NCBI GenBank assembly: GCA_038062895.1
Contig: JBBTWJ010000014.1
Span: 4,036 to 68,035 of the forward strand
Direction: 5' to 3'
Length of the DNA: 64,000 nucleotides
Origin: Patescibacteria group bacterium
Lineage (GTDB): Bacteria > Patescibacteriota > Microgenomatia > UBA10105 > UBA927
Positions 1,115 through 49,834 of this stretch are shown in pieces. Position numbers and translations under genes: made by a program. Positions within the stretch are counted from its first letter, which is position 1, and each line of letters opens with the position of its first letter. The notes below the pieces were generated by a model that saw only the letters and a list, made by a program, of their open reading frames with translations, was not told the origin of the DNA and made no database searches.

Positions 1115-1143
1115 ATATTTATTATATTTGAAATCCTTAACAA

Positions 1144-1737: not shown

Positions 1738-1803
1738 ATATTATAAATATATGATAAATTTACAGTAAAGTCAAGAGTGAATTTTAAGGGGGTGAAATTA
1801 AAT

Positions 1804-2037
1804 ATGGCAAAACAAAATCAACATGTAGTACCGCATCAAGGTGATTGGGCAGTCAGAGGAGAAGGAAACTCAAGAGTTACTTCAATTCACCCGACACAAT
1901 CTTCGGCTTATGAAGTAGCAAGGAAAATTGCAATTAACAATAGGTCTGAGGTTGTTACTCACCGTCCTGATGGAACAATTAGGGATAAGGATAGTTTTGG
2001 GAACGATCCGTGTCCACCAAAAGACAAGAAGAATTAA
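1804..2037 (+). CDS. DUF2188 family small protein
   Basis: MAKQNQHVVPHQGDWAVRGEGNSRVTSIHPTQSSAYEVARKIA...DGTIRDKDSFGNDP matches the DUF2188 pattern. Strong SD (AAGGGGGTGA) 8 nt before the ATG at 1804. Confidence 0.7.
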   Translation: MAKQNQHVVPHQGDWAVRGEGNSRVTSIHPTQSSAYEVARKIAINNRSEVVTHRPDGTIRDKDSFGNDPCPPKDKKN

Positions 2038-2044
2038 TTCCAAT

Positions 2045-2962: not shown

Positions 2963-3005
2963 TTTGAAACAACCACCAAAAGGATCATCTTTTGAAACTA
3001 TAGAA

Positions 3006-3524
3006 ATGACTAAAGTAGACTTTTTTCAGGCATCACTTAATAAGCTACATGATGACGTAGGAACAATTCTCAGGTTACTTGATGAACACAATAAGCAATC
3101 TGCTCGTAAGGTAGGTTTTTGGGCAAGTATGAGGTTAATTATGCCAATTATTGAGGCGGTGGCAAATGTTACCGGAGAAAAACCCCAAGAGTTTCTTAAA
3201 AATCACTTAGAAGTTACTGCTCCTTACTTAACCTGGGATTTATTTAGACATTCACTTATCCACGGGGACTATATGCAACACGCAAAATACCAATCAAAAG
3301 AGATTGGTTGGGGTATCGCATTTATTGGAGTAGGCCATGTTATTACCAGTGGACACATAGGCATTGACGCTATACACCTTTACAACAAACTCAATGAATA
3401 TATAACCGCTGAAGTGGCAAAAAATGACCAAGCAGTCGTCAAAATTGAAGTAGGAGTTTTATATAAAAATCCAAAGCAGGAAGTTGTTGACGAGTTTAAT
3501 AAACTATGCGGTAAGGGTTTATAA
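3006..3524 (+). CDS. hypothetical protein (third gene of AT-rich operon)
   Basis: ORF 2928..3524. The internal start MTKVDFF at 3006 avoids overlap with the upstream gene. No recognisable motif. Confidence 0.45.
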   Translation: MTKVDFFQASLNKLHDDVGTILRLLDEHNKQSARKVGFWASMRLIMPIIEAVANVTGEKPQEFLKNHLEVTAPYLTWDLFRHSLIHGDYMQHAKYQSKEIGWGIAFIGVGHVITSGHIGIDAIHLYNKLNEYITAEVAKNDQAVVKIEVGVLYKNPKQEVVDEFNKLCGKGL

Positions 3525-3727
3525 TTGTTGGGATTGCTGAAGTGTAGTTTCTGGGTCAACACATAATTCAGCTCAGTCTACCGTACGAAACGTATCCCAG
3601 TTACTGAGCCTGTTGGCACTTAATATACTAAAATCGTGCTTGCAACCGTACATGCAACCTATGCAGGCAACCTGCCGGGTAGTTTAGATTTAAACCTCTC
3701 TCTTTATTAAATATCTGTTTTTTAACA

Positions 3728-3751
3728 TGCTCAAATTATACTCCCCTCACG
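3728..3751 (-). promoter_or_regulatory. copy 1 of conserved promoter-like motif GGGGAGTATAATTTGAGC (TATAAT -10 box)
   Basis: The same 20-24 bp motif recurs at 5117-5140 and 6020-6038. This copy lies in a 330-bp gene-free region. Confidence 0.4.
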
Positions 3752-3872
3752 CTCCCTTCGATAGACTTCCCTCGAAAAGACTCGGGACAGGCAGGGTAAA
3801 CAGACTCAGTGTGAACACTTCAGCAAGTTTATGGTGAGCCAAGCCGAACCAATCAGGGTAAATGATCGGGAT

Positions 3873-4778
3873 TTATTTCAATCTTTTTTTCTCTTCCGGC
3901 TCATGGAGAAAGTTTTGTTTGGAGACGACTGAACGGCCGAGGCGTTTCTCAAGCTTTTTTCTTGCTCCTCCGGCTATATCGCCTCCGGCCTTGGCATCTG
4001 CTTTTAACTTGGGCACACCTTGGGAATCCTCATTCCGGTGAATTTCCGTCGTAGCGCGTTCGCCTAACATGTTAAAAATCAATTCAAAATCATCCATGTG
4101 GTCACGTAAATTCTCGCGTCGCAGACCCTTTAGTTTTTTATATTCACTCGGCGTGACCCCAAACGTGGCTTTAGAAATTTCTGCGGTCAGTATTTCATAA
4201 TCTCTGTCTTCTCTTGCTCCACGCTTCTGCCACTGGTCGGTCAACTCTTCCCGAATCGCAATCCCACGCATCCGTTTCTCTATCCAATCATCTGAATACC
4301 CTTTTAGCTTGTAGAGCATTCGAGTTCTCTTGGTGCCTAACTCCGGGTTTTCTATCTCCTGCACCCGCTCGTACCCCACGCGGGCTAGCCACCGTTTAAA
4401 AGGCTCAGCTTTTGGGGATGGTATGGATTGGATGAGTCGAAAAATACCTTCCGTATGCCAACAATAGGCTTTTTGTACTCCTCCCGGGGTTTCAATATCC
4501 AACATAAGGGGTGGTACAAATTGTACCCCTCCTTTGTCAGTCAATTTTGCTAGCTCCCCATCTCTCTCCTTGAGCCGTTTGAAGTATTGCGCTGGATCAC
4601 GAGAATTAGCTAACGCTTCGATGACATCATTCACCGAAAACCACCATTCATTGTTATAAATAGTTTTCCTGATCTTTTTGCCTTTAAACAGAGCGATTTT
4701 TGTTGCATCCATAAACAAATAAATACCTAATGAGTCAAAGTATACTCCACCTTCTGTAGGGACACGCCTCATGCTCAA
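3873..4778 (-). CDS. Bro-N domain / DinD-like (DNA-damage-inducible protein D family) protein
   Basis: 301 aa. N-terminal Bro-N-like segment (FKGKKIRKTIYNNEWWFSVNDVIEAL). The C-terminal segment KKLKGLRRENLRDHMDDFELIFNMLGE resembles E. coli DinD (KGLKKNQKILDHMGSTELAANLF). Confidence 0.65.
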   Translation of the reverse strand: MSMRRVPTEGGVYFDSLGIYLFMDATKIALFKGKKIRKTIYNNEWWFSVNDVIEALANSRDPAQYFKRLKERDGELAKLTDKGGVQFVPPLMLDIETPGGVQKAYCWHTEGIFRLIQSIPSPKAEPFKRWLARVGYERVQEIENPELGTKRTRMLYKLKGYSDDWIEKRMRGIAIREELTDQWQKRGAREDRDYEILTAEISKATFGVTPSEYKKLKGLRRENLRDHMDDFELIFNMLGERATTEIHRNEDSQGVPKLKADAKAGGDIAGGARKKLEKRLGRSVVSKQNFLHEPEEKKRLK

Positions 4779-4795
4779 AATATGATTTATATTCG

Positions 4796-5110
4796 TTACT
4801 GTATCCTTCCTGTGGCGGCTAAGAAAAGAACGATGGGGATACTCATCGTATACACCAATCCACCTATACCAAACATGACGAGTAAAATTACCAGAATTGA
4901 ATTTTTATACACAACGCTCATTGTTATGGGAAACTTCACCAACGTGGCGTACGTCCGACGACAGAGGGTAACAATAGAAACATTGAAAATTCTTTTCGAT
5001 ACCTTGTCAGCAGTGAGATAGGCTCCGTACAGCGCAGAACACACGTCATATACAAACTCTTTCCAAAAATATTTCCTCACCCGGATGGTAATACGTACTG
5101 CGCTATCCAT
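4796..5110 (-). CDS. small membrane protein (2 C-terminal TM helices), hypothetical
   Basis: Track ORF 4796..5122 begins with TTG. The first ATG (MDSAVR...) is at 5110. A hydrophobic C-terminal segment follows. Preceded by motif copy 2. Confidence 0.35.
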   Translation of the reverse strand: MDSAVRITIRVRKYFWKEFVYDVCSALYGAYLTADKVSKRIFNVSIVTLCRRTYATLVKFPITMSVVYKNSILVILLVMFGIGGLVYTMSIPIVLFLAATGRIQ

Positions 5111-5116
5111 ATACTT

Positions 5117-5140
5117 ACTCAAAGTATACTCTCCTCACGC
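5117..5140 (-). promoter_or_regulatory. copy 2 of conserved promoter-like motif (GAGGAGAGTATACTTTGAG)
   Basis: Lies 7-30 nt upstream of the ATG at 5110 on the minus strand. Confidence 0.4.
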
Positions 5141-5187
5141 CAGGGAAGGGCATGGTACATCCCCCACGCGGCAAATAGCTATGAAAT

Positions 5188-6006
5188 TTATTTCAATTTT
5201 TTGATGGAGGGATTACCTAGTAGAGATTGCATTTGGGAAATGGCGGTTTGGTTTAGTTGAACTAATCTAACGGATTGGGAAATTTCTTGCCTGATGAGCT
5301 GGGCATTGAGACCCTCGAGGTTGGCCAGTACTACAAGTTGGGTGACGTCGGCATAGTCGCGGATATTACCATCTTTGCCCGGATTTTCATCCCGCCACAA
5401 TTTGGCTGTTTTGCCAAACAACGCCATGTTGAGTACATCAGCCTCACTGGCATAAACAATACTTGTTGTTTGTTGCGAAACAGAGGGAGGAACCAGGTGT
5501 TCTTTGATCGCATCGGTGTGGATTTTATAGTTAATCTTAGTCAGAGTCCTTTTCACATCCCAACCAAGCCGCAATTTTTCACTCTCTTCATTTTTTAGTC
5601 TCTGAAACTCTTTGATGAGATAAATTTTAAATTCAGGGCTTATCCACATCCCAAATTCAAAGGCAATATCTTTATGGGCATATGTTCCACCATATCGTCC
5701 GGCGGTTGCCTTGAGACCAACAGCATTCGTCTTTTTGACCCATTCTTTTACACTTATCTTGTAGTTATTCAAGCCTGCCTGACTTTTAATTGTGGCAAAT
5801 TCGCCATAATTAAAATTTGGATTATGTAACTTTTCCCATATACCCAAAAATTCAACGGTATTTCTATTTCTGAGCCAATCGGAAATAAAAAAATCACCAT
5901 CTTTTGCTTTCAACATGTCGGTAAGCGAAATAAAATCATCACCCCCAACATTTAAAATAATGCCGATTTGACTGCCCTGAACTATAATTTGTTTACTTTT
6001 CGTCAT
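5188..6006 (-). CDS. KilA-N domain protein (phage antirepressor-type DNA-binding protein)
   Basis: 272 aa. The N-terminal 100 aa match KilA-N/APSES-like proteins (QIGIILNVGGDDFISLTDML...). The C-terminal half is conserved in KilA-N domain-containing proteins (YAHKDIAFEFGMWISPEFKIYLIKEF). Confidence 0.7.
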   Translation of the reverse strand: MTKSKQIIVQGSQIGIILNVGGDDFISLTDMLKAKDGDFFISDWLRNRNTVEFLGIWEKLHNPNFNYGEFATIKSQAGLNNYKISVKEWVKKTNAVGLKATAGRYGGTYAHKDIAFEFGMWISPEFKIYLIKEFQRLKNEESEKLRLGWDVKRTLTKINYKIHTDAIKEHLVPPSVSQQTTSIVYASEADVLNMALFGKTAKLWRDENPGKDGNIRDYADVTQLVVLANLEGLNAQLIRQEISQSVRLVQLNQTAISQMQSLLGNPSIKKLK

Positions 6007-6019
6007 ATTGCAATAATTA

Positions 6020-6038
6020 GCTCAAATTATACTCCCCC
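6020..6038 (-). promoter_or_regulatory. copy 3 of conserved promoter-like motif (GGGGGAGTATAATTTGAGC), 22 nt upstream of KilA-N ATG
   Basis: Identical core to copy 1. No SD between the motif and the ATG. Confidence 0.45.
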
Positions 6039-6064
6039 TACCTACTAAACACGATCTAACATCA

Positions 6065-6418
6065 TTATGACTCTATGACCACTCCCTCCAGGACGTCCAT
6101 ATCGATGAAGGGGTACAGGAGCCTCAGATTTTTGGTATTGGAACGGTAAAAAAGATCCGCAACGACCCCGATAAACGGGAGGAGCCCCAGGAGATAATCC
6201 AAAAAGATATGCCAACCCATCGTCCAATAAATCCGCGACGGGACCTTCAATTGATACGCAATCCAGAAGAGATAGCAGGAGATACCTGCGCCAATCATGC
6301 TTCCGAACCCCGGCAAGATGTCCAGGATCGGATCTATCCCAAACCGGATACCAAAAAAGTTAAATTTGGTATCCATGAGAGTCACCAGACGCTGAGCGAA
6401 CTCAATATGTGATTTCAT
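6065..6418 (-). CDS. DUF4112 family membrane protein
   Basis: 117 aa, two TM helices, GIDPILDILPGFG ... GLLPFIGVVADLFYRSNTKN pattern typical of DUF4112. Confidence 0.55.
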   Translation of the reverse strand: MKSHIEFAQRLVTLMDTKFNFFGIRFGIDPILDILPGFGSMIGAGISCYLFWIAYQLKVPSRIYWTMGWHIFLDYLLGLLPFIGVVADLFYRSNTKNLRLLYPFIDMDVLEGVVIES

Positions 6419-7302
6419 TGAGGACTATACCCCTTCCCAATCTTCCACACGCCTTTTTCACGAAACGCAGGGATCGTCTGTCGACGGGCAGCGTTAAATA
6501 TGGCCGGAGCACCAAGATTATGCTCTTTGACATATGTGGCCAGAGTAACTATTTCACCACCTTGTAAATAGGTAATACGTTTATGCAACGACTCACATAT
6601 TGCCCGCGTAAGAACACGTTCCGTTGTGCTGGTCTTTTTGTCATCACGATATTGCGTAAATCCCCGATAATATTCCTGCTTTTCTTTATCACGGATGATA
6701 ATATTCGGAAAACCTATTCGTTGGAGTTGAAGATTGATCAGCGCTCTTCCTATGCGGCCATTACCGTCATTAAATGGATGAATCGTTTCAAACTCCAGAT
6801 GAAAACGTGCGATAGCATCAAGAGGATATAGCGTCAGATTACCCGTATATTCCTCAAGTAACCGATCCATCAACCGATCGATATGTTCCGGCGCAGGTGC
6901 GACAAAAGCTCCCACACGTACATATTCATTTGCGCTGCGAAACCGTCCGGCTATTTCATCATTTATTCCTACGAGGAGCATACCGTGAAGCGTACAAATA
7001 AATTCTTTGGATAACTCACGATCTTTTGATAACGCTCGTATAAAAGCCACAACACGGGCTAAATTTTTAGCCTCATACACTTCACGAACGCTCACCTGCC
7101 GGGATACTTCCATTTCCAGTAATATTTTTTCCGTTTCCGGAAGGCTGAGGGTCGAGTTTTCAATCGCGTTGGAGTTGTAGACACTTTCTGCGATTTCCGC
7201 CTCATCGATGAGGGTAAGGAGTGCGTCTTTGCCTATCCGCAACCGGTCAAATTGAGTCTTGATTATTCGTATTTTATCGGTGATCAATCGCGATGTAGCC
7301 AT
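6415..7302 (-). CDS. Fic family protein (AMPylase/phosphocholine transferase fold)
   Basis: Canonical Fic motif HPFNDGNGRIGRAL in a 295-aa protein. Confidence 0.85.
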   Translation of the reverse strand: MATSRLITDKIRIIKTQFDRLRIGKDALLTLIDEAEIAESVYNSNAIENSTLSLPETEKILLEMEVSRQVSVREVYEAKNLARVVAFIRALSKDRELSKEFICTLHGMLLVGINDEIAGRFRSANEYVRVGAFVAPAPEHIDRLMDRLLEEYTGNLTLYPLDAIARFHLEFETIHPFNDGNGRIGRALINLQLQRIGFPNIIIRDKEKQEYYRGFTQYRDDKKTSTTERVLTRAICESLHKRITYLQGGEIVTLATYVKEHNLGAPAIFNAARRQTIPAFREKGVWKIGKGYSPQ

Positions 7303-7372
7303 ACTTCATATAATAGCATATTCACGGTGTTTTGTCAATTTACCGTGAATATGGATAAGAAATCGGCTCTAT

Positions 7373-7621
7373 TCACGGTATTTTGATGGTATACACCACG
7401 CCGCGGGTGGAACCCATTTTTTGTATAAATCCCGCCTTAGCAAGCTGCTTGAGGTCATAATGAAGCGTACTTGGTGGCACGAGCCGGAATTGCCGTGATA
7501 AAAACGCGAATGATACCATCTTATTTTCCCGTATCGTCGCCACGATCTCCTGACGCCGGGGAAACGGCGACGAGTGAGGCTGTATGGTTATTATGCGCTG
7601 CATGGTCGCTAGTGAATCCAT
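7373..7621 (-). CDS. winged-helix (DeoR-like HTH) DNA-binding protein upstream of fic
   Basis: 82 aa with HTH_DeoR-like helix (VSFAFLSRQFRLVPPSTLHYDLKQLAKAGFI). Confidence 0.5.
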   Translation of the reverse strand: MDSLATMQRIITIQPHSSPFPRRQEIVATIRENKMVSFAFLSRQFRLVPPSTLHYDLKQLAKAGFIQKMGSTRGVVYTIKIP

Positions 7622-7630
7622 GAGAACATA

Positions 7631-7680
7631 TTAGAAGATATTAGAAGATGTTGCAAGATGTTGCAAGATGTTGCAAGATA
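7631..7680. repeat. five tandem 10-bp repeats (TTAGAAGATA x2, TTGCAAGATG x3) in divergent promoter region
   Basis: Perfect 10-bp periodicity read directly from the sequence. Lies between the wHTH gene start (7621) and the MBL gene start (7729). Confidence 0.8.
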
Positions 7681-7728
7681 TCACATGATTATGGCAAACG
7701 GCGACAGGAATACGGTACACTAATAATA

Positions 7729-9078
7729 ATGAAAATTAAATTTCTCGGAGCGGCAGGGATGGTGACGGGATCTTCCTATATTCTCACATCCGGATCCGGA
7801 CAATCCATCCTAATCGATCTTGGATTATTTTTAGGCACTCCGGATATCAACAAGCTCAATGAACAACCGTACGCCTATGACTGCAGCCAATTAGCCGGTG
7901 CCGTCTTGACGCACGCCCATCTGGATCACTGTGGCAGGCTGCCGATACTCTTGCCCCAGGGCTACAAAGGAAATATCTGGATGACGAGGGCAACGGGCGA
8001 CCTGACGGAAATATCGTTACTGGACAGCGCAAAAATTGCAAAGGAGGGAGACCGCCGCCCCCTGTTTGATAAAGCGCTCGCCGAGCAAACCATCAAACGG
8101 TTTATGACCGTCGACTACCGTACTCCTGTTTCCATCGGCAACTTCACCGTTACGCTGCGTGACGCGGGCCATATCCTGGGATCAGCAATCTTGGAAATAG
8201 TGGATACCAAGCCAGACTCCGGGGTCAAAAAGGTCGTCTTCAGCGGTGATTTGGGCAATACGCCGGAGGACTTACTCGAAGAGACAGAGTACCTTGATAG
8301 TGCCGATTGCGTCGTCATGGAGTCCACCTACGGCGACCGGCTCCATCCTATCTCTTCTGCCGAAGTTGCCCTTGAGTCAGAAATACACAGTATCGAAGCC
8401 TCCGGCGGGACGCTTCTTATCCCGGCATTTGCACTGGACCGGACCCAGGAACTTTTGCACATGATCATGCACATGAAACAATCGGGGAAAATGGGAGCCG
8501 GCACACCGGTTTTTTTGGACAGTCCGATGGCCGAAAAAGCGACGCTCGTCTATGGGAAGTATCCGCAAATTTTTAATACCCATATCCGGGATGATTTCAA
8601 AACCGGAAATCCCTTCGGGTTTGCCGGACTTACCGTCGTTGCCACCAACCAACAAAGCGACGCGCTCTTTACGCTTACCGGACCCAAAGTCATCATCGCC
8701 GGAAGCGGCATGATGACCGGAGGAAGAATTCTCAACCTTGCGACCCATTTTCTGCCGATTGCTTCTACCCGGTTATTTATCGTGGGATATCAGGGCGAGG
8801 AGACGCTGGGACACAACATACTTGCCGGAAATAAACAGGTGTCCATCAACGGCATCACCGTCCCCGTCCGGGCGACGGTCAACGATACACAAGGGATGAG
8901 TTCTCATGCCGACCAGAAACAGCTCATCGCATGGCTGGGGCACATCAAGCAGGTACAAAAAGTCATCCTCACCCACGGCGAAGACGGACCGCGCAACGCA
9001 TTGGCTCAAAAAATATCAGAAGATTTGGGGTTTACTAATGTCTCCCTCCCGGTCCTCCATCAGGAAATACAACTATAA
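7729..9078 (+). CDS. MBL-fold metallo-hydrolase of the beta-CASP (RNA-metabolising) family
   Basis: THAHLDHCG motif II, beta-CASP arrangement and a C-terminal H motif. The true start MKIKFLGAAG is at 7729. Confidence 0.8.
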   Translation: MKIKFLGAAGMVTGSSYILTSGSGQSILIDLGLFLGTPDINKLNEQPYAYDCSQLAGAVLTHAHLDHCGRLPILLPQGYKGNIWMTRATGDLTEISLLDSAKIAKEGDRRPLFDKALAEQTIKRFMTVDYRTPVSIGNFTVTLRDAGHILGSAILEIVDTKPDSGVKKVVFSGDLGNTPEDLLEETEYLDSADCVVMESTYGDRLHPISSAEVALESEIHSIEASGGTLLIPAFALDRTQELLHMIMHMKQSGKMGAGTPVFLDSPMAEKATLVYGKYPQIFNTHIRDDFKTGNPFGFAGLTVVATNQQSDALFTLTGPKVIIAGSGMMTGGRILNLATHFLPIASTRLFIVGYQGEETLGHNILAGNKQVSINGITVPVRATVNDTQGMSSHADQKQLIAWLGHIKQVQKVILTHGEDGPRNALAQKISEDLGFTNVSLPVLHQEIQL

Positions 9079-9112
9079 CGTCACCAGCGCATCGTGCTAT
9101 ACTATAAGCTAC

Positions 9113-9364
9113 ATGAATGACATTGTGACGGTAGAAGAGGCCGCTATGTTTCTCCATAAACATCCGGGAACCATACGGCGGTGGATAGAAAGCAATAAAC
9201 TCAAAGCCCGGCATCTTTCCGCCGGCGGACACGGGATCTATGCGATACTCCGGATGGATCTTCTGGAATGTATGATCGCCGGGGATATAAAGGAAAAAGA
9301 AAAAATCAAACACGCGCCTACCCCTAAAGCCCTACCCGATCCACAAACCCAACTTCCGCTTTAA
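9113..9364 (+). CDS. helix-turn-helix (excisionase/MerR-like HTH_17) DNA-binding protein
   Basis: 83 aa from an internal ATG. VTVEEAAMFLHKHPGTIRRWIESNKLKA is a typical HTH_17 segment. Confidence 0.5.
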   Translation: MNDIVTVEEAAMFLHKHPGTIRRWIESNKLKARHLSAGGHGIYAILRMDLLECMIAGDIKEKEKIKHAPTPKALPDPQTQLPL

Positions 9365-10530
9365 GGCGTATCCCCTGTCCCCTCCGGAAGGCTAAACACA
9401 CGGATTTCAGGAAGTGCCGGACCCATGATGCCCTGGAGTTCGCCGTACATTTTTGCCATATTATCGATAGCCCGATGGATCTGCATCTCACGCTTTTTCC
9501 ACAGCCGCTCCATACTCCGGCGTTCCGTGGATAAATCTTCCTCCATCCCCTTGATGGTTTCCGCATATGCTTCAAACCGGTGCCGGAAGGTGTCGCTACT
9601 GAGATATTGATAAAGAAATTCAAGCTTCTCATCTTTGTTGGCAGCTACCGACCGGGCTTGAGCGACTTGCATGACCGCGCGTCGCAGAAGCTCTGCCAAC
9701 GGTAATACAAATGGATATGTGGTCACGACGACCCCCTCCCGCATGGCAAATGTCCCGATGTCATCCGGTACGCTTTCGCTAATGAGAACGACAATCGTCG
9801 CCCCGGCATTCCTGCCGTCTTCACGAAGTTTGGGAAGCCAACTCGGCGTCCACTTGGCGCGTTTGGTCTCCCAGAGAATGATGCCCGCCGCCTTCCCCGC
9901 CTGATTTTTGACGGTTTGGATGATGTCTGCCCCTTGCGTGCCTTTGCCAACCGGAGCCACATCATCGTAGATAAATGCGGATTTCAGTTTCTCTTCGATA
10001 TTCAGTTCGAGGACTTCCCCCTGCAATTGTTGAGACTTCTGCGCGAGTTTATTTTTGGCATCGTCCAGGGATTTTTTGGTATCGTCCAATTGCTTTTTGA
10101 GCTCCAAGACCTCCATCTGGGATTTCTCACCGAGCGTTTTGGTGAGTTCCTCGTGATTTTTATCAATGGCTTCATTCAGGCGCTTCTCATATTCGAGGCC
10201 GCGCTTCTCGTCCTGATCTTTGAGGTCCCGGATGGATTTATTGAGATCCAGAAGTTGAATCGTGAGCGCTTTATTTTGTTCCCGCAGTTCACCAACCTGG
10301 TTCTCGCGGTCCTTCATCTGGATGGAAACATCCGCCACTGCCTTCTCCCGCGCCGTCTTCTCAACTTCCTCACGCACACGGTCAAGTTCTGCTTTATGGG
10401 AAGCGGCGACCGTATCCTTCACCTGCTCCTCCACTTCATGAAGAAGCGCCTTCGTGATCTCTATTTCGGCACCGCAATGGATACATTTGATGGTAGCTCC
10501 CATAGTAGAGGCATTGTAAACGATTGACAC
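9361..10530 (-). CDS. DUF2130-like protein (N-terminal zinc ribbon, long coiled coil, C-terminal conserved domain)
   Basis: N-terminal CIHCG zinc ribbon, an E/K-rich coiled-coil region of about 150 aa, and a conserved C-terminal globular part. Confidence 0.5.
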   Translation of the reverse strand: MSIVYNASTMGATIKCIHCGAEIEITKALLHEVEEQVKDTVAASHKAELDRVREEVEKTAREKAVADVSIQMKDRENQVGELREQNKALTIQLLDLNKSIRDLKDQDEKRGLEYEKRLNEAIDKNHEELTKTLGEKSQMEVLELKKQLDDTKKSLDDAKNKLAQKSQQLQGEVLELNIEEKLKSAFIYDDVAPVGKGTQGADIIQTVKNQAGKAAGIILWETKRAKWTPSWLPKLREDGRNAGATIVVLISESVPDDIGTFAMREGVVVTTYPFVLPLAELLRRAVMQVAQARSVAANKDEKLEFLYQYLSSDTFRHRFEAYAETIKGMEEDLSTERRSMERLWKKREMQIHRAIDNMAKMYGELQGIMGPALPEIRVFSLPEGTGDTP

Positions 10531-20406: not shown

Positions 20407-21252
20407 ATGTGGCTCGTTCTCTCTATCATCGCAGCACTCATGTTCACCGCCCAAAATCTCCTTATGCGGGTCTTGGCAGTCAAAAGTGTCCACCCTCGGA
20501 CGTTTTCGTTCGTTTTTAACGGTTGGGGAACGTTCTTCGCAACCATTCTTCTCCTCATCGAGCGCCCGTCGCTTGCCGGTCTCCCCCAATTTTCATGGAT
20601 TCAAGTACTTCTGATTATCGGCGCAACCTTGGGATATGGATTCTATGAACGAACGCATTTTTTAGCAAGAAAAGAATTGGATGCTTCTACCACCGCCATC
20701 TTGTTTCGGTTAACTCCTGTGATCACGTTTGTCGGTGCAATGCTTTTTCTCCATGAATCATTTACCATCACAAAACTCGTGGGGGCCACGATCCTCATCG
20801 GAGCGTCATTGGTCGTTGTACACAAAAACCCCAAACTACAGGCAAGCAGGGCCGTATGGATCGCCGTCTTTGCAGCCGTCATGCTCGGGCTTGCCGGAGT
20901 GTTTGATAAACCTGCATCGCAGGGAATTCCAGCTAATCTCTATAGCGTCGCACTGTGGGGGTTGTCGCTTATTATTGTCGCATTTCCTACAATCTCTCTT
21001 TCCCAACTCAAGACCGAATTTATCATTGGTGGCTGGAAGGTCGCACTGACTGCGCTTCTCAATGTCATCGGGTTTGTTTTCTACGTGCAGGCACTCTCGT
21101 TGGCCGATGCGTCCCTTGTGGCCCCGGTTACGTCATCATCCGGCACACTCACGGTCCTTGCCGGTATTTTCATCCTAAAGGAAAAATCCTTTGTGAAGAG
21201 AAAAATCCTCGCCGGGATTCTCATGGTGATCGGAGTCATAATGCTTCGATGA
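20407..21252 (+). CDS. EamA/DMT family transporter
   Basis: About 10 TM segments and a duplicated EamA-like architecture. Confidence 0.7.
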   Translation: MWLVLSIIAALMFTAQNLLMRVLAVKSVHPRTFSFVFNGWGTFFATILLLIERPSLAGLPQFSWIQVLLIIGATLGYGFYERTHFLARKELDASTTAILFRLTPVITFVGAMLFLHESFTITKLVGATILIGASLVVVHKNPKLQASRAVWIAVFAAVMLGLAGVFDKPASQGIPANLYSVALWGLSLIIVAFPTISLSQLKTEFIIGGWKVALTALLNVIGFVFYVQALSLADASLVAPVTSSSGTLTVLAGIFILKEKSFVKRKILAGILMVIGVIMLR

Positions 21253-21263
21253 CAGAATTCGCA

Positions 21264-22475
21264 TCAGATAACCCCTAGTTCCCGGCCGACTGCGGCAAAC
21301 GCGGACAACCCGAAATCTAAATCTGTTTTACTGTGTGTGGCCGACGGCATCGCGCGGATACGTGCTTTTCCGAGGGCCACCATCGGAAACTTAATCGGAG
21401 TAGCAAATACCCGGCGCGCGAATAACTTCGCGCTAAATTCTTTCGCAAGGTTTTCTTCCCCCAACATGACCGGCGTGATCGGCGTTTCCGTCTGTCCCGT
21501 ATCAAATCCGAATTTGGTGAGTCCTTCACGCAGATACTTGGCATTGCTCCATAGTTTTTTCACGAGGACATTTGACCGCGAGAGTATCTCAACTCCCTTG
21601 ATAACCGCTGCAGTATCGGCAACACTCAAGCCCGTGGAAAATAGATACGGCCGTCCTTTTTGACGGTAATACTCTATCAGATCCCTTTTACCCGTAATCA
21701 CACCGCCCAAGACCCCGAACGCTTTGGACAAGGTTCCAACCTCGATGTCCAGTTGTCCCTCTAGATGAAAATGGTGCGCGATGCCCCTTCCTTCGCCCAA
21801 CACGCCCTCGCCATGGGCATCATCGACCATCGTGATGGCACCATATTGTTTGGCAAGCCCCACAATCCGAGGAAGGGGGGCAATATCCCCGTCCATGGAA
21901 AATACTCCGTCGGATATGATGAGGATGATCGGTGGACGCTCCCCGGGCTTTTGCAGCGTTTTGGTGAGTAGGACGGATTCCTTGAGACGCGCCTCAAGCT
22001 CACCCATATCTTTATGTTTATAGATAAATTTATTTTTCACTTGGGCAAGCTTGATGGCATCGATGATGCTTGCATGATTGAGCTCATCGGAAATGACGAT
22101 ATCGTCTTTGCCCACGATGGTCGCAATGGCCACAATATTAGCGATGAATCCGCCCGGCAGGAGAAATGCCGCTTCGGCGCCTTTCAGTTTGGCGAGAATA
22201 GCTTCCGCCTCCATATGGAGTTTGAGATTCCCGGAAATCGGCCGGACGGCGCCAGGTCCGACACCATATTTCTTCACCGCGGCGACAGCTGCCCTCACCA
22301 ACCGCTTGTCCTGGGCAAACCCGAGATAGTTATTGGAGCACAAATTCAGAAGCTTCTTACCGTCAATCGTAAACCACGGCCCCTGCGCCGACTCGAGCAC
22401 CCGCACGGGCGTATAAAGGCCCTTCTGCTTCATATCCTCAATGGTGTCGTAATATGATTGCAACGGATCAAGCAT
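21264..22475 (-). CDS. kbl: class II PLP-dependent aminotransferase of the KBL/AONS family (glycine C-acetyltransferase or 8-amino-7-oxononanoate synthase)
   Basis: NNYLGF, a pyridoxal-lysine region (TLSKAFG) and overall KBL/BioF-like layout. 403 aa. Confidence 0.8.
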   Translation of the reverse strand: MLDPLQSYYDTIEDMKQKGLYTPVRVLESAQGPWFTIDGKKLLNLCSNNYLGFAQDKRLVRAAVAAVKKYGVGPGAVRPISGNLKLHMEAEAILAKLKGAEAAFLLPGGFIANIVAIATIVGKDDIVISDELNHASIIDAIKLAQVKNKFIYKHKDMGELEARLKESVLLTKTLQKPGERPPIILIISDGVFSMDGDIAPLPRIVGLAKQYGAITMVDDAHGEGVLGEGRGIAHHFHLEGQLDIEVGTLSKAFGVLGGVITGKRDLIEYYRQKGRPYLFSTGLSVADTAAVIKGVEILSRSNVLVKKLWSNAKYLREGLTKFGFDTGQTETPITPVMLGEENLAKEFSAKLFARRVFATPIKFPMVALGKARIRAMPSATHSKTDLDFGLSAFAAVGRELGVI

Positions 22476-22775
22476 AAAATTATCCTTTTACCTCTTTGGT
22501 AGGCTCTACATTAATTGATTCACCACAGCTCAATGATTCTGGAAATAATTCAGATTTAGTATTATCGAATATCACTTCACCAAGTATGCCCGATGCTAGA
22601 TCACCATTTATTGGAGGACCCGATTCAACTAATGCTGCCAATGTATTCAACCAATCTGACATAATTATTCACCAACCTTCCGTTTCAAAACATAAATACA
22701 TTTTCCAACTGTATATATTAGTCTGATACAGTCGACAAAATCACGCGCGCAATCTACTATCTCTCCCTCTACCGT

Positions 22776-22807
22776 GGACAAAATACACCACGTGGTTTAT
22801 TTTGTCC
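22776..22807. promoter_or_regulatory. perfect inverted repeat GGACAAAATA-N12-TATTTTGTCC (central CCACGTGG palindrome) upstream of Cys-rich small ORF
   Basis: Read directly from the sequence. About 70 bp upstream of the ATG at 22879. A TAAAAT -10-like box lies between the repeat and the ATG. Confidence 0.6.
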
Positions 22808-22878
22808 AAGCTTACCAATGACGTGCATATCACTCCGCAAACTCTGTGATAAAATACACTATGAAAGGGGGTGATACT

Positions 22879-22989
22879 ATGTGTCAAACTTGTGGATGTG
22901 AAGCGTGTAAAACATGCGGCAAAAATATCAAAAAGGGCGTGTGTGAAGGTTGTGGAAAAGCGTCCGGCGACTGTACGTGTAATAAATAA
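22879..22989 (+). CDS. 36-aa cysteine-rich peptide MCQTCGCEACKTCGKNIKKGVCEGCGKASGDCTCNK (metallothionein-like)
   Basis: Own translation. Absent from the ORF track because it is under 60 aa. 10 Cys in 36 aa arranged as CxxCxC and CxxC pairs. Strong SD AAAGGGGGTGA 7 nt upstream. Confidence 0.5.
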   Translation: MCQTCGCEACKTCGKNIKKGVCEGCGKASGDCTCNK

Positions 22990-23010
22990 CGATCTGAACC
23001 AACTACTACT

Positions 23011-23460
23011 ATGAAGCGCGGCGTAGATTATATTGGTGTGGGCGTGGGAGCGGCGATCTTCAATCACGAAGGAAAACTTTTTCTGACGCTTCGGGGTAGA
23101 AAAGCAAAAAACGAGACCGGAAAATGGGAAATCCCAGGAGGGAGTGTGGAATTTGGTGAAACGCTTGAAGATGCACTCAAACGCGAAATCACAGAGGAAT
23201 ACGGGATAGAAATAGAGATTGTGGAGCTCCTCGGTGTGTGCAGTCACATCATCCCCGACGAGCATCAGCACTGGGTCTCTCCCACATACATCTGTAAAAT
23301 TATGAAAGGGGAGCCCAAGATTTTAGAACCGGAGAAATGCGCCGCCATCGGATGGTTCACCCGCAAGGAAGCCAAAAAATTACCCCTCTCCATCATCACC
23401 CAGCACGACTTCGTAACCCTTGATCACAAATATCCCAACGGATTTCCAAAAAATTCATGA
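23011..23460 (+). CDS. NUDIX hydrolase
   Basis: Nudix box GGSVEFGETLEDALKREITEEYGI. Confidence 0.8.
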   Translation: MKRGVDYIGVGVGAAIFNHEGKLFLTLRGRKAKNETGKWEIPGGSVEFGETLEDALKREITEEYGIEIEIVELLGVCSHIIPDEHQHWVSPTYICKIMKGEPKILEPEKCAAIGWFTRKEAKKLPLSIITQHDFVTLDHKYPNGFPKNS

Positions 23461-24131
23461 ATCAAAGACTCCAAAGCATCTACGACGGATTTGCATCACA
23501 GAATCGTCAAAAATTTCTCGATAATGATATTGAATTTGATGCCATGTGGGGCAAGCCGATTAAAGGCATCACCCTCCAGATCGATCTTTCTGAAAAAATG
23601 CGCAGCGCCGTAGGTCACCTACAGAAAACACTATCCGAACTCGAACCAAAAGCGCTTCTTCTCACTCCCCGACCCTTTCAACATATCAGTTTCAATCAAG
23701 TGGTCTTCTGGGGCGGACAATACAACCTCGGACACGATCAAGCGTGGGAAGTGATTGAAAAAAATTTTCTCACCGCATTTCAAAAACTCGACAATAAATT
23801 CCCTTCCTTCACTATCTCATTTATCAACCTTATCCCGATGACCTCTGCCATCATCTGGTCCGCCGTTGACCAACACGATGAGATGCAGAGATTACGCACA
23901 CGTCTAAAGGCTAGCCTTCCCTTCCCCAAAGAAACAACCAAAGAAAACACCTTCATCCACACCACCGTTACGCGATACATGTCAAAACTCCGTGACCCGC
24001 AACAGGTATTTAAACTTCTGGAAGAATATCAAGCGCCCATCTCCATGGAGATCAAGGAAATCATACTGCGGAAAGAAAATATATATCCATCGCTTGGCAC
24101 TACAGAACTCGCCCGTATTCGGTTACAATAA
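23457..24131 (+). CDS. 2H phosphoesterase superfamily protein (LigT-like)
   Basis: Two H-x-[ST]-x motifs (FQHISF and FIHTTVTRY) at the spacing expected for 2H phosphoesterases. Confidence 0.5.
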   Translation: MNQRLQSIYDGFASQNRQKFLDNDIEFDAMWGKPIKGITLQIDLSEKMRSAVGHLQKTLSELEPKALLLTPRPFQHISFNQVVFWGGQYNLGHDQAWEVIEKNFLTAFQKLDNKFPSFTISFINLIPMTSAIIWSAVDQHDEMQRLRTRLKASLPFPKETTKENTFIHTTVTRYMSKLRDPQQVFKLLEEYQAPISMEIKEIILRKENIYPSLGTTELARIRLQ

Positions 24132-24135
24132 TTAC

Positions 24136-24480
24136 ATGAAAATCATTCCATCATCACAAACCAATAAAATTCAGATGTCTCCCACTACCGCGGTCTGGGA
24201 ATTCACTATCGAGGATACATCTATAAGCGGTGCTATTGCAGAAATCAAAGATCGATATCCCGAAAAAGGATTTATCATAAATGAAATTTCCAAAGAACTT
24301 GCCTTCGTGATCGCAGGAAACGGATACGTCGTTACTCCGACTCACAAAAATCCGATACAGGTCGGCGACCTCATTTTTTTGGACAATGGCGAATCTTATG
24401 CATGGGAAACGAGCAGCACGCTCACCCTCTTCATGGCCAACACCCCAAAATTTGACCCGGGGCAGCACAAAAATATATGA
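24136..24480 (+). CDS. hypothetical protein
   Basis: ORF 23992..24480. The internal ATG at 24136 begins just after the upstream stop. No motif recognised. Confidence 0.4.
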   Translation: MKIIPSSQTNKIQMSPTTAVWEFTIEDTSISGAIAEIKDRYPEKGFIINEISKELAFVIAGNGYVVTPTHKNPIQVGDLIFLDNGESYAWETSSTLTLFMANTPKFDPGQHKNI

Positions 24481-25466
24481 AATTATGGCTTGATAGGCCT
24501 GATATTAAAGAATCATTAGATGATTTCCTTCACGATGTCGCCAACGTGTTTCAACTAGGAACCATCAAGAAGTTTTCAAGATTTCCCTTTGGTTACCAAG
24601 AGCTAAATATAAAACTAGAAACGTCCCAAGGTATCTACGCCGTCAAAACTTTCTCCAGAGAAAAACCATTATCACGGGTTAAAGAAAACATTCAAGGATA
24701 TCTCGAGTTTCCAAAATTGGGTATTCCTATGCCAAAACTTCTGGTAACGAACAATAATGAGACCATTCTCATTACAGAAGGAAAACATCAAAAAGTCTAT
24801 ACGTGCGTCATGGAATATTTTGAGGGCAAGTCTTTCCTACAACTACCTGTTACGAAACGCGACGTCATACAAATCACCAAATGTATGGCATACATACATC
24901 AATCAAAACTTAAACCGGCACACTATTACGATACGTTAGGAATAGTTAACTTTGAATATATCTATGAGAAACAAGTTGATACACTTTCCGCGCAGGATAA
25001 CAATGAAATAAAACAAACACTGAAGGAGTTTCAGAGAATAAATCTAACGAAGTTTCATCAAAGTGTCATTCATGGCACTCTGGAACGAGAAAATATTCTA
25101 AAAAATTCTCAAGGAGCCTACTGCATCCTCGATTTAGGATGTATGGACTATAATGCTTCTATCGTTGATATTGCGACGTTTCTGGCAAACTTTACTATCG
25201 ATATGGACGGAGAGGAAACTGTTGAAATGATAAAAGAGTCACTTACCGAATATCAAAAATTTCATATGCTTACTGCAGATGAACGACTGGCATTACCGAT
25301 TCTTATCGAAGCACAATACGCCATTCTGGTAATGGGCATGACGCATGCGATGAAAATGGAACATGATGATAGCAAACAAACAAACCGTTGGTTAGAATTT
25401 GGAAAACACGGCCTAAAAAAATTTCAGGGAATCCACTCCCTGCCTTTACAGAAGCCAATGGGATGA
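24477..25466 (+). CDS. phosphotransferase enzyme family (APH/choline-kinase-like) protein
   Basis: HGTLERENIL (HGDxxxxN-like catalytic loop) and ILDLGCMDY (DxG). Confidence 0.6.
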   Translation: MKLWLDRPDIKESLDDFLHDVANVFQLGTIKKFSRFPFGYQELNIKLETSQGIYAVKTFSREKPLSRVKENIQGYLEFPKLGIPMPKLLVTNNNETILITEGKHQKVYTCVMEYFEGKSFLQLPVTKRDVIQITKCMAYIHQSKLKPAHYYDTLGIVNFEYIYEKQVDTLSAQDNNEIKQTLKEFQRINLTKFHQSVIHGTLERENILKNSQGAYCILDLGCMDYNASIVDIATFLANFTIDMDGEETVEMIKESLTEYQKFHMLTADERLALPILIEAQYAILVMGMTHAMKMEHDDSKQTNRWLEFGKHGLKKFQGIHSLPLQKPMG

Positions 25467-25510
25467 CTACAATAGGGTCCATTCATCAATAAAACTGAAG
25501 TAGAAAAATT

Positions 25511-26500
25511 ATGAACGTAAAAATTGCTGATCTCAAAAATCTCGGACTCAAGGCACTCAAAAAACAAGGCTACAACGACACCGAGGCAGATACCGTCTTG
25601 GGTATGCTCCTGTATGCACAGCTCCGGGGAAACAATCAGGGGATGGTCAAACTCATCGGCAAAGGAATCCCTAAAAATCCTGCGGCTGGCGCCATCACGA
25701 TCGAAAAAGAAACTAAACTTTCCGCCCGCATCAATGGAGCACATAATCCTGGTGCCATCGTTATAAAAAAGGCCATGGATTTGGCTATCACAAAAGCAAA
25801 AGAACACGGGATCGGTATCGTGGGAACCAATACCACTAATAGTTCAACCGGCGCCCTGGGCTACTGGGCCGGACAAATTGCGCGGGAAGGACTTGTCGGA
25901 TTCGTCTTTGCCGGATCACCGGAAACCGTCTGCTATCACGGATCCTTTGAACCGATTTTTGGCACCAATCCTATGGCCATCGGCGTTCCTACTGACGGCG
26001 ATCCGATTGTTTTAGATATGGCTACCGCCACCATGGCCTATTACGGACTCATTGAAGCTAAGACCGCGGGCCGCAAAATCCCGCCCGGCATTGCATACGA
26101 TACTGAAGGAAATTTAACCGATGATCCGGCTAAAGCCATGGATGGGTCTCTCCGGCCATTTGATAAAAGCTACAAAAGCGCGGGGCTTGCCCTCATGGTC
26201 GAGATCCTCACCGGACCATTGGTGGGAGCCTCCTTCACCGGCATCGGCGACACTGCCGCCAACTGGGGAAACCTCGTCTTTGTCATCGATCCGGAAATGC
26301 TTGGCGACCGTAAAGAATTTGCCAAAAATGTTTCGGCTCTCGCCGTCCGCGTGAAGGCGACCAAGAAACTTCCGGGTGTAACAGAAATTCTCATGCCAGG
26401 AGAACGCGGCGATAAACTTACCAAACAACACAAAACCGAAGGCACCATCGATATCGAAGACAATCTCTACCACGCGCTTGAAGAAGCAGCAAAAAATTGA
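25511..26500 (+). CDS. Ldh_2 family (malate/L-lactate/sulfolactate) dehydrogenase
   Basis: Overall match to the Ldh_2 fold (HNPGAIV, GTNPMAIGVP, catalytic His region). Confidence 0.65.
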   Translation: MNVKIADLKNLGLKALKKQGYNDTEADTVLGMLLYAQLRGNNQGMVKLIGKGIPKNPAAGAITIEKETKLSARINGAHNPGAIVIKKAMDLAITKAKEHGIGIVGTNTTNSSTGALGYWAGQIAREGLVGFVFAGSPETVCYHGSFEPIFGTNPMAIGVPTDGDPIVLDMATATMAYYGLIEAKTAGRKIPPGIAYDTEGNLTDDPAKAMDGSLRPFDKSYKSAGLALMVEILTGPLVGASFTGIGDTAANWGNLVFVIDPEMLGDRKEFAKNVSALAVRVKATKKLPGVTEILMPGERGDKLTKQHKTEGTIDIEDNLYHALEEAAKN

Positions 26501-27387
26501 TCAATAGCCTAATGCCTTCATTTCATACCATTCGACTATCCCCGGGATTCAAGTTCTCCCTCATGGCTTCCCTATCCTGGGCCATCAGTATTGTTCTCAC
26601 CCGAACCATCCTCACGACCGGCGGGGAAAATGCATACACCCTGGCCTACTGGTCCACGATTCTTGCGACGCCATTTTGGGGCTATATGCTCTTGAGAAAC
26701 AAAAAGGAAGTTACAACATTAAAAAAGGGAGATCTGTATCTTTTTATCATCATGGGACTCATCGGAACCATAGGAGTGTCAATCGTGCAATCTCTGGCGC
26801 TTGCCAGTAGCAACGCGATCAATTATGCATTTCTCATCCGCACGGTCACGGTATTTACCATTCTCTTTGCGGCAGTATTGCTACGCGAACGCATGACGAA
26901 TAAAAAAGGAATACTGGTTACCCTGACGATCCTTGGCGCGTATCTTTTGACGACTGAAGGGCAAAGCTTAAAACTTACCACGGGGGATCTTTTCATCCTC
27001 TTACAAGCCATACTTCTCGCCCTCAATACAATCTTAGGAAAAATTGCTACGAATCGCATGAGCGCAAACGTAAGCGCAGCAGGAAGATTTTTTGCATCGT
27101 TCCTCCCTTTTACCCTCATCACTTGGTATCAGCAAGGACTGCAAGCGCCACACGCAATCCTCCCTGTTTTACTACTGACGGGAGTTTCCATCGTGGTGAC
27201 AACTACTCTTTTCCAAGCGTTTAAGCATGCTTCTGCTTCCTACGTGACGATGATTATGTCCTTCACGCCTGTCTTTGTATCCATCATCTCTATCCCACTT
27301 CTCCACGAGACGCTCTCAACCATGCAGATTCTTGGAGGGATTTTCATCATCGGCGCCGGTGTTGCAGCCGAAAAACTAAAAATATAA
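26497..27387 (+). CDS. EamA/DMT family transporter (second copy)
   Basis: 10 predicted TM helices in two EamA repeats. Confidence 0.7.
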   Translation: MINSLMPSFHTIRLSPGFKFSLMASLSWAISIVLTRTILTTGGENAYTLAYWSTILATPFWGYMLLRNKKEVTTLKKGDLYLFIIMGLIGTIGVSIVQSLALASSNAINYAFLIRTVTVFTILFAAVLLRERMTNKKGILVTLTILGAYLLTTEGQSLKLTTGDLFILLQAILLALNTILGKIATNRMSANVSAAGRFFASFLPFTLITWYQQGLQAPHAILPVLLLTGVSIVVTTTLFQAFKHASASYVTMIMSFTPVFVSIISIPLLHETLSTMQILGGIFIIGAGVAAEKLKI

Positions 27388-28217: not shown

Positions 28218-28874
28218 TCAACGAGGGTTCGCCTCTTCTGTTTGGTTCATTACCGTTCTCGTCACGGTCGATGATTTTCCGTATCGGCTGGTTGCAATAA
28301 CGATGATCGTATTGTTTCCCGGCTCGAGAGTCACTTGGTCAAAAAACTTGCCGTCGCCACGCACAAGCACGGATATCCCATTCACCGTCACCGTCGCATC
28401 AGAATCCGTCACCCCGAGTACCTCGACTTTTTTCGTCGTAATGACGGCGCTCTCCTTCGGCGTTTCAATGGTAAGTCCAGGTGGACTTTGGAGTTGTCCA
28501 TATTGGAGACCTAAATATATGAGGAACGCCAAGACCAATCCCATAAAAAGAAATATGAGAAACTTACCCGGGGTCAACTGAAACCACGCGCGGTTCAAAG
28601 ACTGCGCCACTCCCGTTGGGAGAATGGATGATCTGGTTATTTCTTGCGTTTGCCGCCTAAAAAATGCGAGAATCGTGGGAGCCGGAATACCTAAAAACTC
28701 TGCATAGTTTTTTACAAAACCCTTCGCGTACGCTTGCGAGGGAAGACTACTATAGTCATCCGATTCGATACCCGCAAGGAACTTTGCACGAATTTTGGTC
28801 GAAAGTTCCGCCTGTTCAAACGTGAGATGTTTGGCTTCCCTCGCTTCTTTGAGGATAGATCCGACGGTTTTCAT
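28218..28874 (-). CDS. rodZ: RodZ-like cytoskeleton protein (HTH_25 + TM + C-terminal DUF4115-like domain)
   Basis: N-terminal HTH (LKEAREAKHLTFEQAELSTKIRAKFLAGIE) followed by a single TM. Confidence 0.6.
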   Translation of the reverse strand: MKTVGSILKEAREAKHLTFEQAELSTKIRAKFLAGIESDDYSSLPSQAYAKGFVKNYAEFLGIPAPTILAFFRRQTQEITRSSILPTGVAQSLNRAWFQLTPGKFLIFLFMGLVLAFLIYLGLQYGQLQSPPGLTIETPKESAVITTKKVEVLGVTDSDATVTVNGISVLVRGDGKFFDQVTLEPGNNTIIVIATSRYGKSSTVTRTVMNQTEEANPR

Positions 28875-49765: not shown

Positions 49766-49767
49766 GA

Positions 49768-49794: not shown

Positions 49795-49834
49795 CCCTTG
49801 TCAATACCCTTCTTATTCTTCATAATGATGATGT

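Follow-up and report, generated by a model that had tools for sequence, protein, structure and literature searches.

A nine-cysteine miniprotein gene missed by annotation and its conserved upstream palindrome in a Patescibacteria contig

The 64-kb stretch of DNA analysed here (positions 4,036 to 68,035 of contig JBBTWJ010000014.1, assembly GCA_038062895.1, Patescibacteria group bacterium), referred to throughout as the window, carries a 36-amino-acid (aa) open reading frame (ORF) that we regard as a genuine gene overlooked by annotation, and, some 70 nt in front of it, a 34-nt palindrome that is probably a regulatory site. On balance, we lean towards the view that the gene encodes a cytosolic metal-thiolate miniprotein, predicted to be metallothionein- or zinc-ribbon-like, which would be under the control of a lineage-specific dimeric regulator. 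The coordinates of the features are collected in Table 1.

The peptide gene and its family

The preliminary description of this DNA had proposed a Cys-rich peptide gene upstream of a NUDIX hydrolase gene, and the ORF exists with exactly the 36-residue translation claimed for it, MCQTCGCEACKTCGKNIKKGVCEGCGKASGDCTCNK. The translation contains nine cysteines (positions 2, 5, 7, 10, 13, 22, 25, 32 and 34), however, and not the ten that had been counted. The strong Shine-Dalgarno (SD) sequence at good spacing that had been noted with the gene was found as AAAGGGGGTGA, with 7 nt from its G-run to the ATG. We placed the start at 22879 because the N-terminus M-C-Q is family-wide and has an SD directly before it; the alternative in-frame starts upstream, a GTG at 22846 and an ATG at 22861, both merely read through the SD. 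The exact peptide sequence was missing from a collection of 15 billion proteins, and the peptide was not called on the contigs listed for this organism from ENA or Logan; the gene is therefore unannotated, as had been proposed. An antisense ORF of 176 aa (22741-23271), which overlaps the Pfam-supported NUDIX gene, was regarded as spurious.

Neither Pfam nor NCBIfam gave a match to the window peptide at E <= 1, and a word-indexed homologue search with a 47-aa extended ORF as the query returned nothing, since small ORFs are seldom predicted and have few shared words. In an exhaustive phmmer search of 1.84 billion representatives, eight small proteins came up with all nine cysteines in common, and a profile built from these eight matched 72 clusters at E <= 1, nearly all of them with the signature M-C-Q-x-C-G-C-x-P-C-x-x-C-G-x-x-I-x-x-x-V-C-x-G-C-x6-C-x-C, which is followed by a variable tail that is either Lys-rich or long and acidic. 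The family matches are 35-48 aa in length, every one is labelled 'hypothetical', and none carries a Pfam or NCBIfam domain. Scanning of one genome per GTDB species with a back-translated pattern of residues 1-10, residues 13-34 lying outside the pattern, gave 145 loci. These belong to Planctomycetota (Sedimentisphaerales, Phycisphaerales, Pirellulales and Brocadiia), Desulfobacterota/Deferrimicrobium, Nitrospirota, Omnitrophota, Patescibacteria, Dehalococcoidales and others, with two to three copies of the peptide gene in some genomes. Eighty of the 145, all in metagenome-assembled genomes (MAGs), were examined in detail, and the neighbour statistics given below rest on these 80. In viral contigs no homologue of the peptide was found, and a phage origin of the gene was rejected on that ground.

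Each of 86 family loci is distinct at the nucleotide level, and in every one the nine cysteines are found at identical positions, encoded by TGC (534 codons) and TGT (240 codons). The mean pairwise difference was 0.24, 0.18 and 0.53 for the first, second and third codon position, the third thus being the most variable, and an SD-like motif stands at the same place in 85 of the 86. Protein-level conservation, the lack of which had been named beforehand as speaking against the gene, is thus evident in the retained cysteines and the variable third codon position, and we consider the peptide gene to be real and under protein-level selection. In a sub-family, P0066-P0069, C-x-C replaces C-x-x-C at the fourth and fifth cysteines (...CTPCKCG...) with all nine cysteines retained. 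Cysteines are substituted in two database members, P0007 (Y2/Y10) and P0058 (R13/F22), and these losses could be sequencing errors or decaying copies. No description of the family turned up in the literature on the sequence motif and on bacterial metallothionein families, and it forms a widespread, undescribed group of bacterial nine-cysteine miniproteins.

Predicted fold and candidate metal ligands

A quarter of the residues of the peptide (25%) are cysteines, and it is Lys-rich and devoid of His, Phe, Tyr and Trp. The cysteines are arranged in CxC (C5xC7, C32xC34) and CxxC motifs (C2xxC5, C7xxC10, C10xxC13, C22xxC25), and in its size, its Cys motifs and its scarcity of His and aromatic residues the sequence fits the operational definition of a metallothionein. 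Composition and motifs thus fit the prediction of a metallothionein-like or Zn/Cu-binding peptide, which is plausible. An M(II)3Cys9 cluster, likewise, is built from nine cysteines. Methionine aminopeptidase is expected to remove the initiator Met when residue 2 is Cys; with Cys at position 2, Met1 would therefore be lost and an N-terminal Cys left. The peptide resembles the metallothioneins (the animal nine-Cys beta-domain, bacterial SmtA/BmtA, and MymT; general background in PMC10612145) in its very small size, its Cys content of about 25% with CxC/CxxC motifs, its lack of His and aromatic residues and its richness in Lys, Ser, Gly and Thr. Unlike them, it has no detectable homology to any metallothionein family (Pfam Metallothio_*, the prokaryotic SmtA type included), its own family has several invariant non-Cys residues that imply a defined fold, and its context yielded neither a metal-responsive regulator nor a transporter. 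Among 47 family members scanned with Pfam, Metallothio_Euk gave faint matches in two (best E 0.44).

The AlphaFold model, built with a 47-sequence alignment, is compact, with a mean pLDDT of 84. It shows a short helix at the N-terminus and, between C10xxC13G and C22xGC25G, a beta-hairpin spanning residues 17-22 (strands 17-18 and 21-22). As modelled, a hairpin between two such knuckles is the knuckle-pair geometry of zinc ribbons and rubredoxins, and the two could form a zinc-ribbon/rubredoxin-like Cys4 site; the remaining cysteines at the termini, C2, C5 and C7 on one side and C32 and C34 on the other, could complete another thiolate site or a shared cluster. The best zinc-ribbon matches in a PDB sequence search were non-significant (L37e, E=0.1; the MutM and RecR fingers), Foldseek against the PDB gave E>3 throughout, with zinc ribbons and RanBP2-type zinc fingers on top, and the Pfam scan of the 47 members returned faint zinc-finger and zinc-ribbon matches, with Zn_Ribbon_1 in one of them. 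The nine-cysteine family is thus not part of any described one.

It could be envisaged that the peptide is a structural zinc-finger micro-protein, an adaptor or regulator which binds a partner protein or nucleic acid, and not a metal buffer. We hold this to be rather unlikely, although several features speak for it. The peptide has two C(P)XCG motifs within fewer than 70 aa (C10-K-T-C13-G and C22-E-G-C25-G, with G14 and G24 nearly invariant across the family), as do the archaeal zinc-finger micro-proteins such as HVO_0758 (PMC10716476), this being a motif class and not a homologous family. The knuckles CKTCG and CEGCG flank the predicted beta-hairpin, the conserved non-Cys core suggests a fixed fold, the compact AlphaFold model is confident, the weak best matches are ribosomal-protein zinc ribbons, eIF2gamma and RanBP2 fingers, and many members have Lys-rich tails. 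In contrast to the archaeal micro-proteins, however, the peptide is bacterial, has five extra invariant terminal cysteines and gives no significant profile or fold match, and nine invariant cysteines far exceed what one Cys4 site needs. Moreover, the tails alternate between poly-Lys and long poly-Glu/Asp among members, which argues against a conserved nucleic-acid-binding tail, and no neighbouring partner gene is conserved across the 80 loci.

The Zn3Cys9 cluster domains of the MSL2 CXC and pre-SET type (PMC3447885) likewise pack nine cysteines into some 35-50 residues, and three metal ions could be shared in the same manner. These domains differ from the peptide in their Cys spacing and in being eukaryotic and set within large DNA- or chromatin-binding proteins, and neither Foldseek nor the Pfam scan of the 47 members gave a sequence or fold match to them.

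A further alternative is a minimal iron or Fe-S redox protein, with a rubredoxin- or desulforedoxin-like Fe(Cys)4 site or a small cluster, serving oxidative stress or electron transfer in anaerobes; this we regard as quite improbable. The family is found mostly in MAGs of Sedimentisphaerales, Brocadiia, Desulfobacterota, Nitrospirota, Omnitrophota and Patescibacteria, which come largely from anoxic habitats, and the C7-x2-C10-x2-C13 spacing and the knuckles are rubredoxin-like. Some neighbours are redox or oxidative-stress genes, among them FMN_red (4 of the 80 loci), Pyr_redox_2 (3), Fe/Mn superoxide dismutase (2) and AhpC (2); a desulfoferrodoxin gene is the second gene downstream of P0001, and CsbD adjoins P0011. 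Most loci, however, have no such neighbour, none of these genes is conserved across clades, no rubredoxin or ferredoxin model was matched in the Pfam scans, and the peptide is without the aromatic core typical of rubredoxins. As a short Cys-rich ORF, it could also be thought a precursor of a ribosomally synthesized and post-translationally modified peptide of the SCIFF/ranthipeptide type, and at one locus (L011) a radical-SAM gene lies about 4 kb away. This origin is most improbable: no SCIFF or other NCBIfam or Pfam precursor model was matched, radical-SAM and maturase genes are not among the commonest immediate-neighbour families (about 80 loci), and there is no leader/core architecture, the conserved region beginning at Met1.

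The upstream palindrome and its proposed regulatory role

A perfect 10-bp inverted repeat with a 12-nt spacer, reported in the preliminary description at about 70 bp upstream of the gene, is present. Its arms GGACAAAATA (22776-22785) and TATTTTGTCC (22798-22807) match perfectly around the spacer CACCACGTGGTT, and 71 nt separate the repeat from the ATG. The 32-mer is self-complementary at 30 of its 32 positions (15 of 16 pairs), and the palindrome extends to 34 nt (TGGACA...TGTCCA) with one mismatched pair. No other inverted repeat in the 64 kb ranks as high, and a search for its arm pattern (10-bp arms set 8-16 nt apart) gave a single match in the window and none in 100 dinucleotide shuffles. 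No RNA family was found by Rfam anywhere in the window. Logan (k=31) contigs from four runs start exactly at base 2 of the palindrome (GACAAAATACACC...; loci L002, L003, L005, L006 and L096), which is an assembly effect, the inverted repeat disrupting de Bruijn assembly; since these breaks occur in separate runs, the palindrome is present in independent data.

A metagenome scan for both arms gave 39 loci, among which the core ACCAC(G/A)TGGT was found only in L097 and L107, the others being judged unrelated hairpins or longer palindromes with chance 10-mers. In L097, a contig of 4.9 kb (GC 45%) from a Patescibacteria relative, a diverged peptide gene, MCQSCGCQSCKTCGKNIKNGVCEGCSKPSGDCSCKK, has the identical 32-mer 65 nt in front of it. 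The two organisms are distant, as their alanyl-tRNA synthetases (AlaRS) are only 55% identical; in both, the AlaRS gene is within a few kb of the peptide gene and divergent from it. Homology between the window and L097 extends from 6 nt upstream of the palindrome as far as the stop codon (Table 1), and at the divergence rate of the coding region the 38 unchanged positions would have a probability of P ~8e-4. In L107 (GC 33%), an HD-domain gene starts 16 nt downstream of the site GGACAAAATA-GACCATGTGGTT-TATTTTGTCC, which lies within a gap of 64 nt separating two genes of the same direction. The window, L097 and L107 agree at all 20 arm positions, with no compensatory changes, and recognition by a protein is therefore favoured over a mere RNA stem.

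A palindrome kept in L097 and a near-identical site in L107 thus support a cis-regulatory site, and its presence before another gene in a relative is as one would expect if it were bound by a transcription factor with a small regulon. We regard the palindrome as a functionally constrained, conserved cis-element and, with the promoter and the peptide gene, as part of a conserved cassette. In L097 the palindrome is retained at 36 of 36 nt. Across 85 family loci no universal upstream palindrome was found, and the motif of the window is lineage-specific. As a separate observation, the gene immediately upstream of the palindrome-preceded HD-domain gene in L107 (1343-1849, minus strand) encodes a 168-aa protein with two W-H-x-H-x-L-x-P-x-C motifs (KKWHFHILTPEC and KSWHHHMLFPDC) and no Pfam family, which may be a His/Cys metal-binding protein.

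The palindrome might instead act as a hairpin in RNA or DNA (stabilising the 5'-UTR or serving as an RNase III-type processing site) or as a pair of symmetric, overlapping divergent promoters, and not as an operator for a protein. The predicted RNA fold shows a long stem over the palindrome, a consensus promoter scan finds TGGACA-17-TATTTT inside it on both strands, a bidirectional promoter would be useful to the divergent genes upstream in the window, and the L107 palindrome sits in an intergenic gap between co-directional genes. This alternative is nevertheless doubtful. There is no U-tract and no terminator call at the palindrome, and its sequence, not only its pairing, is conserved in three diverged organisms. 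In L097 the upstream gene is co-directional, so that a second divergent promoter would be unneeded there, and the symmetry is nonetheless fully kept. Finally, as the homology with L097 starts just upstream of the palindrome, there is no conserved promoter that would transcribe it. The RNA fold also pairs TATCACTCC (22826-22836) with the SD region GGGGGTGATA (22867-22877); a conserved riboregulator that sequesters the SD was rejected, since the segment 22826-22836 is deleted in L097, and the complementarity is probably fortuitous.

The promoter itself could be the extended -10-like element TGaTAAAAT, in which case the dyad centre would lie near -70, or alternatively the TGGACA-17-TATTTT pair inside the palindrome. 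The palindrome resembles the operators of dimeric regulators (ArsR/SmtB, CsoR, CopY and MerR, and the LexA and HrcA boxes) in being a long perfect dyad before a gene and in being conserved across species, also before a second gene in a relative. It differs from them in its length of 32-34 bp, longer than most single-dimer sites, and in having no adjacent cognate regulator gene; we know of no described box that it resembles. The DNA-binding proteins among the window ORFs scanned are LexA (1144-1737, minus strand), HrcA (49034-49804, minus strand), a RodZ-like HTH_25 protein (28218-28874, minus strand) and an HTH_17 protein near 9038-9364, and LexA and HrcA are the only clear transcription factors. 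LexA was rejected as the regulator of the palindrome because the lexA upstream region bears a different one. That imperfect palindrome, TGTATATCTTGCATATATT/AATATATGATAAATTTACA at 1724-1764, overlaps the lexA start and extends upstream of it, and is a candidate LexA box of this lineage, unrelated to the palindrome of the peptide gene. MarR is found among the neighbours at 2 of the 80 family loci.

The mechanism that we lean towards can be laid out as follows. The nine invariant thiols would ligate metal, the two knuckles and the terminal cysteines providing the sites described above, with two to three metal ions bound in total and nine cysteines sufficing for an M3Cys9 cluster. The product would be a small, abundant metal- or thiol-redox-buffering protein, metallothionein-like in its role, and would be expressed from the strong SD and the conserved extended -10-like element. 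The palindrome would most likely be the binding site of a lineage-specific dimeric transcription factor, and the same factor would control at least one other gene, the HD-domain hydrolase, in a relative. In this scheme the binding of metal, its stoichiometry and the physiological role are inferred, and so are the regulator, its signal and its mode of action by repression or activation.

Several results weigh against this mechanism. The peptide has no significant match to metallothionein, zinc-finger or ferredoxin families in Pfam, NCBIfam or PDB sequence and fold searches. The conservation of Q3, G6, P9, G14, I17, V21 and G24 suggests a fixed fold, which would be less typical of classical metallothioneins and more of structural zinc fingers, and the invariance of residues 1-10 is partly ascertainment through the search pattern, by which residues 13-34 are unaffected. 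Only three instances of the palindrome are known, and a second copy, sought elsewhere in the genome, did not turn up in the roughly 70 kb examined (the window and about 5 kb of extra flank). The preliminary description had likened the palindrome to the operator of a metal sensor. No ArsR, CsoR, CopY or MerR gene and no metal transporter lies beside the peptide gene, however, metalloregulators and metal transporters are outside the 25 commonest neighbour families on either side at the 80 loci, and no candidate regulator was found among the window ORFs scanned; the link to a metal sensor is thus conjecture. Lastly, the window and L097 differ by 6 nt in how far the palindrome lies from the -10-like block, which is awkward for an activator dependent on the face of the helix. 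With the close spacing in L107, this shift would fit a repressor or roadblock better than such an activator.

A wider claim can be made tentatively. The peptide may be the founding member of a phylogenetically broad nine-Cys class, found in uncultured bacteria that are mostly anaerobic, with a new compact metal-thiolate centre (M3Cys9-like or minimal Fe-S/Fe(Cys)4). It would then amount to a new class of bacterial metallothioneins or mini redox proteins, in which the Microgenomates copies would be under a new palindrome-binding regulator with its own small regulon. This is possible, and we do not hold it to be probable.

Genomic context and significance

Table 1. Features of the peptide locus in the window and their conservation in the related locus L097
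Feature	Position (nt)	Strand	Evidence	Window versus L097
Nine-cysteine miniprotein coding sequence	22879..22989, stop included	+	Family, invariant Cys, codon-position pattern, AlphaFold pLDDT 84	92/111 identical; 5 synonymous and 8 non-synonymous codon changes; all Cys kept
Shine-Dalgarno AAAGGGGGTGA	22864..22874	+	Sequence; 13/15 nt in L097; SD-like motif in 85/86 family loci	
SD block	22864-22878			13/15 identical
Extended -10-like element TGaTAAAAT, within TCTGTGATAAAATA (22843-22856)	22847..22855	+	Read from sequence; 13/14 nt kept in L097	
TCTGTGATAAAATA block	22843-22856			13/14 identical
Near-perfect 34-nt palindrome TGGACAAAATAcACCACGTGGTtTATTTTGTCCA, core ACCACGTGGT	22775..22808		Inverted-repeat scan; L097, L107	
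Palindrome and flank	22774-22809			36/36 identical
Upstream of palindrome	22700-22769			22/70 identical; essentially no homology
Spacer	22810-22842			15/33 identical, 6 gapped columns
Beyond stop codon				No homology
NUDIX hydrolase gene	23011..23460	+	PF00293, 1.9e-21; 21 nt downstream of peptide gene	
224-aa 2H-phosphoesterase-like gene	23457..24131	+	PF13563, E=3e-4, below gathering score; 4-nt overlap with NUDIX stop	

An operon of the peptide gene with the NUDIX and 2H-phosphoesterase-like genes had been suggested. In the window this is possible, as the gap to NUDIX is 21 nt with no terminator-like site between the peptide stop and the NUDIX start, and co-directional genes run on to 27387. 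The arrangement, however, is not conserved in L097, where the downstream gene encodes an AAA_14/DUF4143 ATPase, or in the family. Read-through into NUDIX is thus possible for this genome only. In the family the gene behaves as a monocistronic unit of its own, probably a highly expressed one. Gene contexts differ from locus to locus, and a Pfam scan of the neighbours at the 80 loci found no neighbour family conserved across clades. Some arrangements are clade-specific: in 9-10 Sedimentisphaerales/Phycisphaerales genomes the peptide gene is preceded by two HtrA-like protease genes and followed by PheT, and three Desulfobacterota-type genomes have FMN reductase, pyridine-nucleotide-disulfide oxidoreductase and dienelactone hydrolase.

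The genome is a Microgenomates-like one, DNA identical to the window is present in several Hainich (H41) groundwater assemblies, and the flanking proteins MEK7544112-17 are listed as 'Patescibacteria group bacterium' at NCBI, the peptide itself having no such accession. The AlaRS of the window is at most 68% identical to any other, the named relatives being Gottesmanbacteria and Woesebacteria. An AlaRS-anchored search gave three closer relatives than L097 (L136, L137 and L138, with AlaRS 65-68% identical), in which the peptide and the palindrome are both absent near AlaRS. The interval between YtxH and AlaRS (20407-27387 in the window) holds different genes in each of these related Patescibacteria genomes and in L097; its cargo in the window comprises EamA, Kbl, the peptide, NUDIX, the 2H-like gene, a cupin-like gene, an APH-like kinase, Ldh_2 and EamA. 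Since the genes between YtxH and AlaRS differ among the closer relatives, the peptide cassette lies in a variable region, and the interval looks like an accessory one.

Three further observations concern the surroundings. A 60-aa ORF (22480-22662, minus strand), divergent from the peptide gene, is called in public assemblies and has no Pfam or NCBIfam match. An exact direct repeat of 941 nt (58448-59388 and 61261-62201, 2813 nt apart), with a 178-aa ORF without a Pfam match in each copy, results either from recent duplication or from misassembly. The lexA region (about 1-10000 of the window; L139) holds Fic, KilA-N, Bro-N, DUF2130 and HTH_17 genes, and a type II restriction-modification set (Eco57I-like, DNA methylase, RE_Alw26IDE) lies before the window start; by its gene content this region looks like a mobile element or defence island.

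The peptide gene is invisible to standard annotation and yet belongs to a strongly conserved family, with at least 145 GTDB species genomes of many phyla carrying it, and its carriers include the genome-reduced Patescibacteria, which retain few dispensable genes. The predicted metallothionein-like mechanism is the best-supported reading, with a zinc-finger micro-protein and a mini iron or redox protein as live rivals. In bacteria of the candidate phyla radiation, comparative genomics allows very few candidate transcription-factor sites to be defined, and the perfectly conserved 34-nt palindrome is one of them. If the thiols of the peptide do bind metal, the very few known families of bacterial metallothionein-like and mini zinc or iron proteins would be joined by a new one, and the peptide would offer a tractable 36-residue model of a metal-thiolate cluster.

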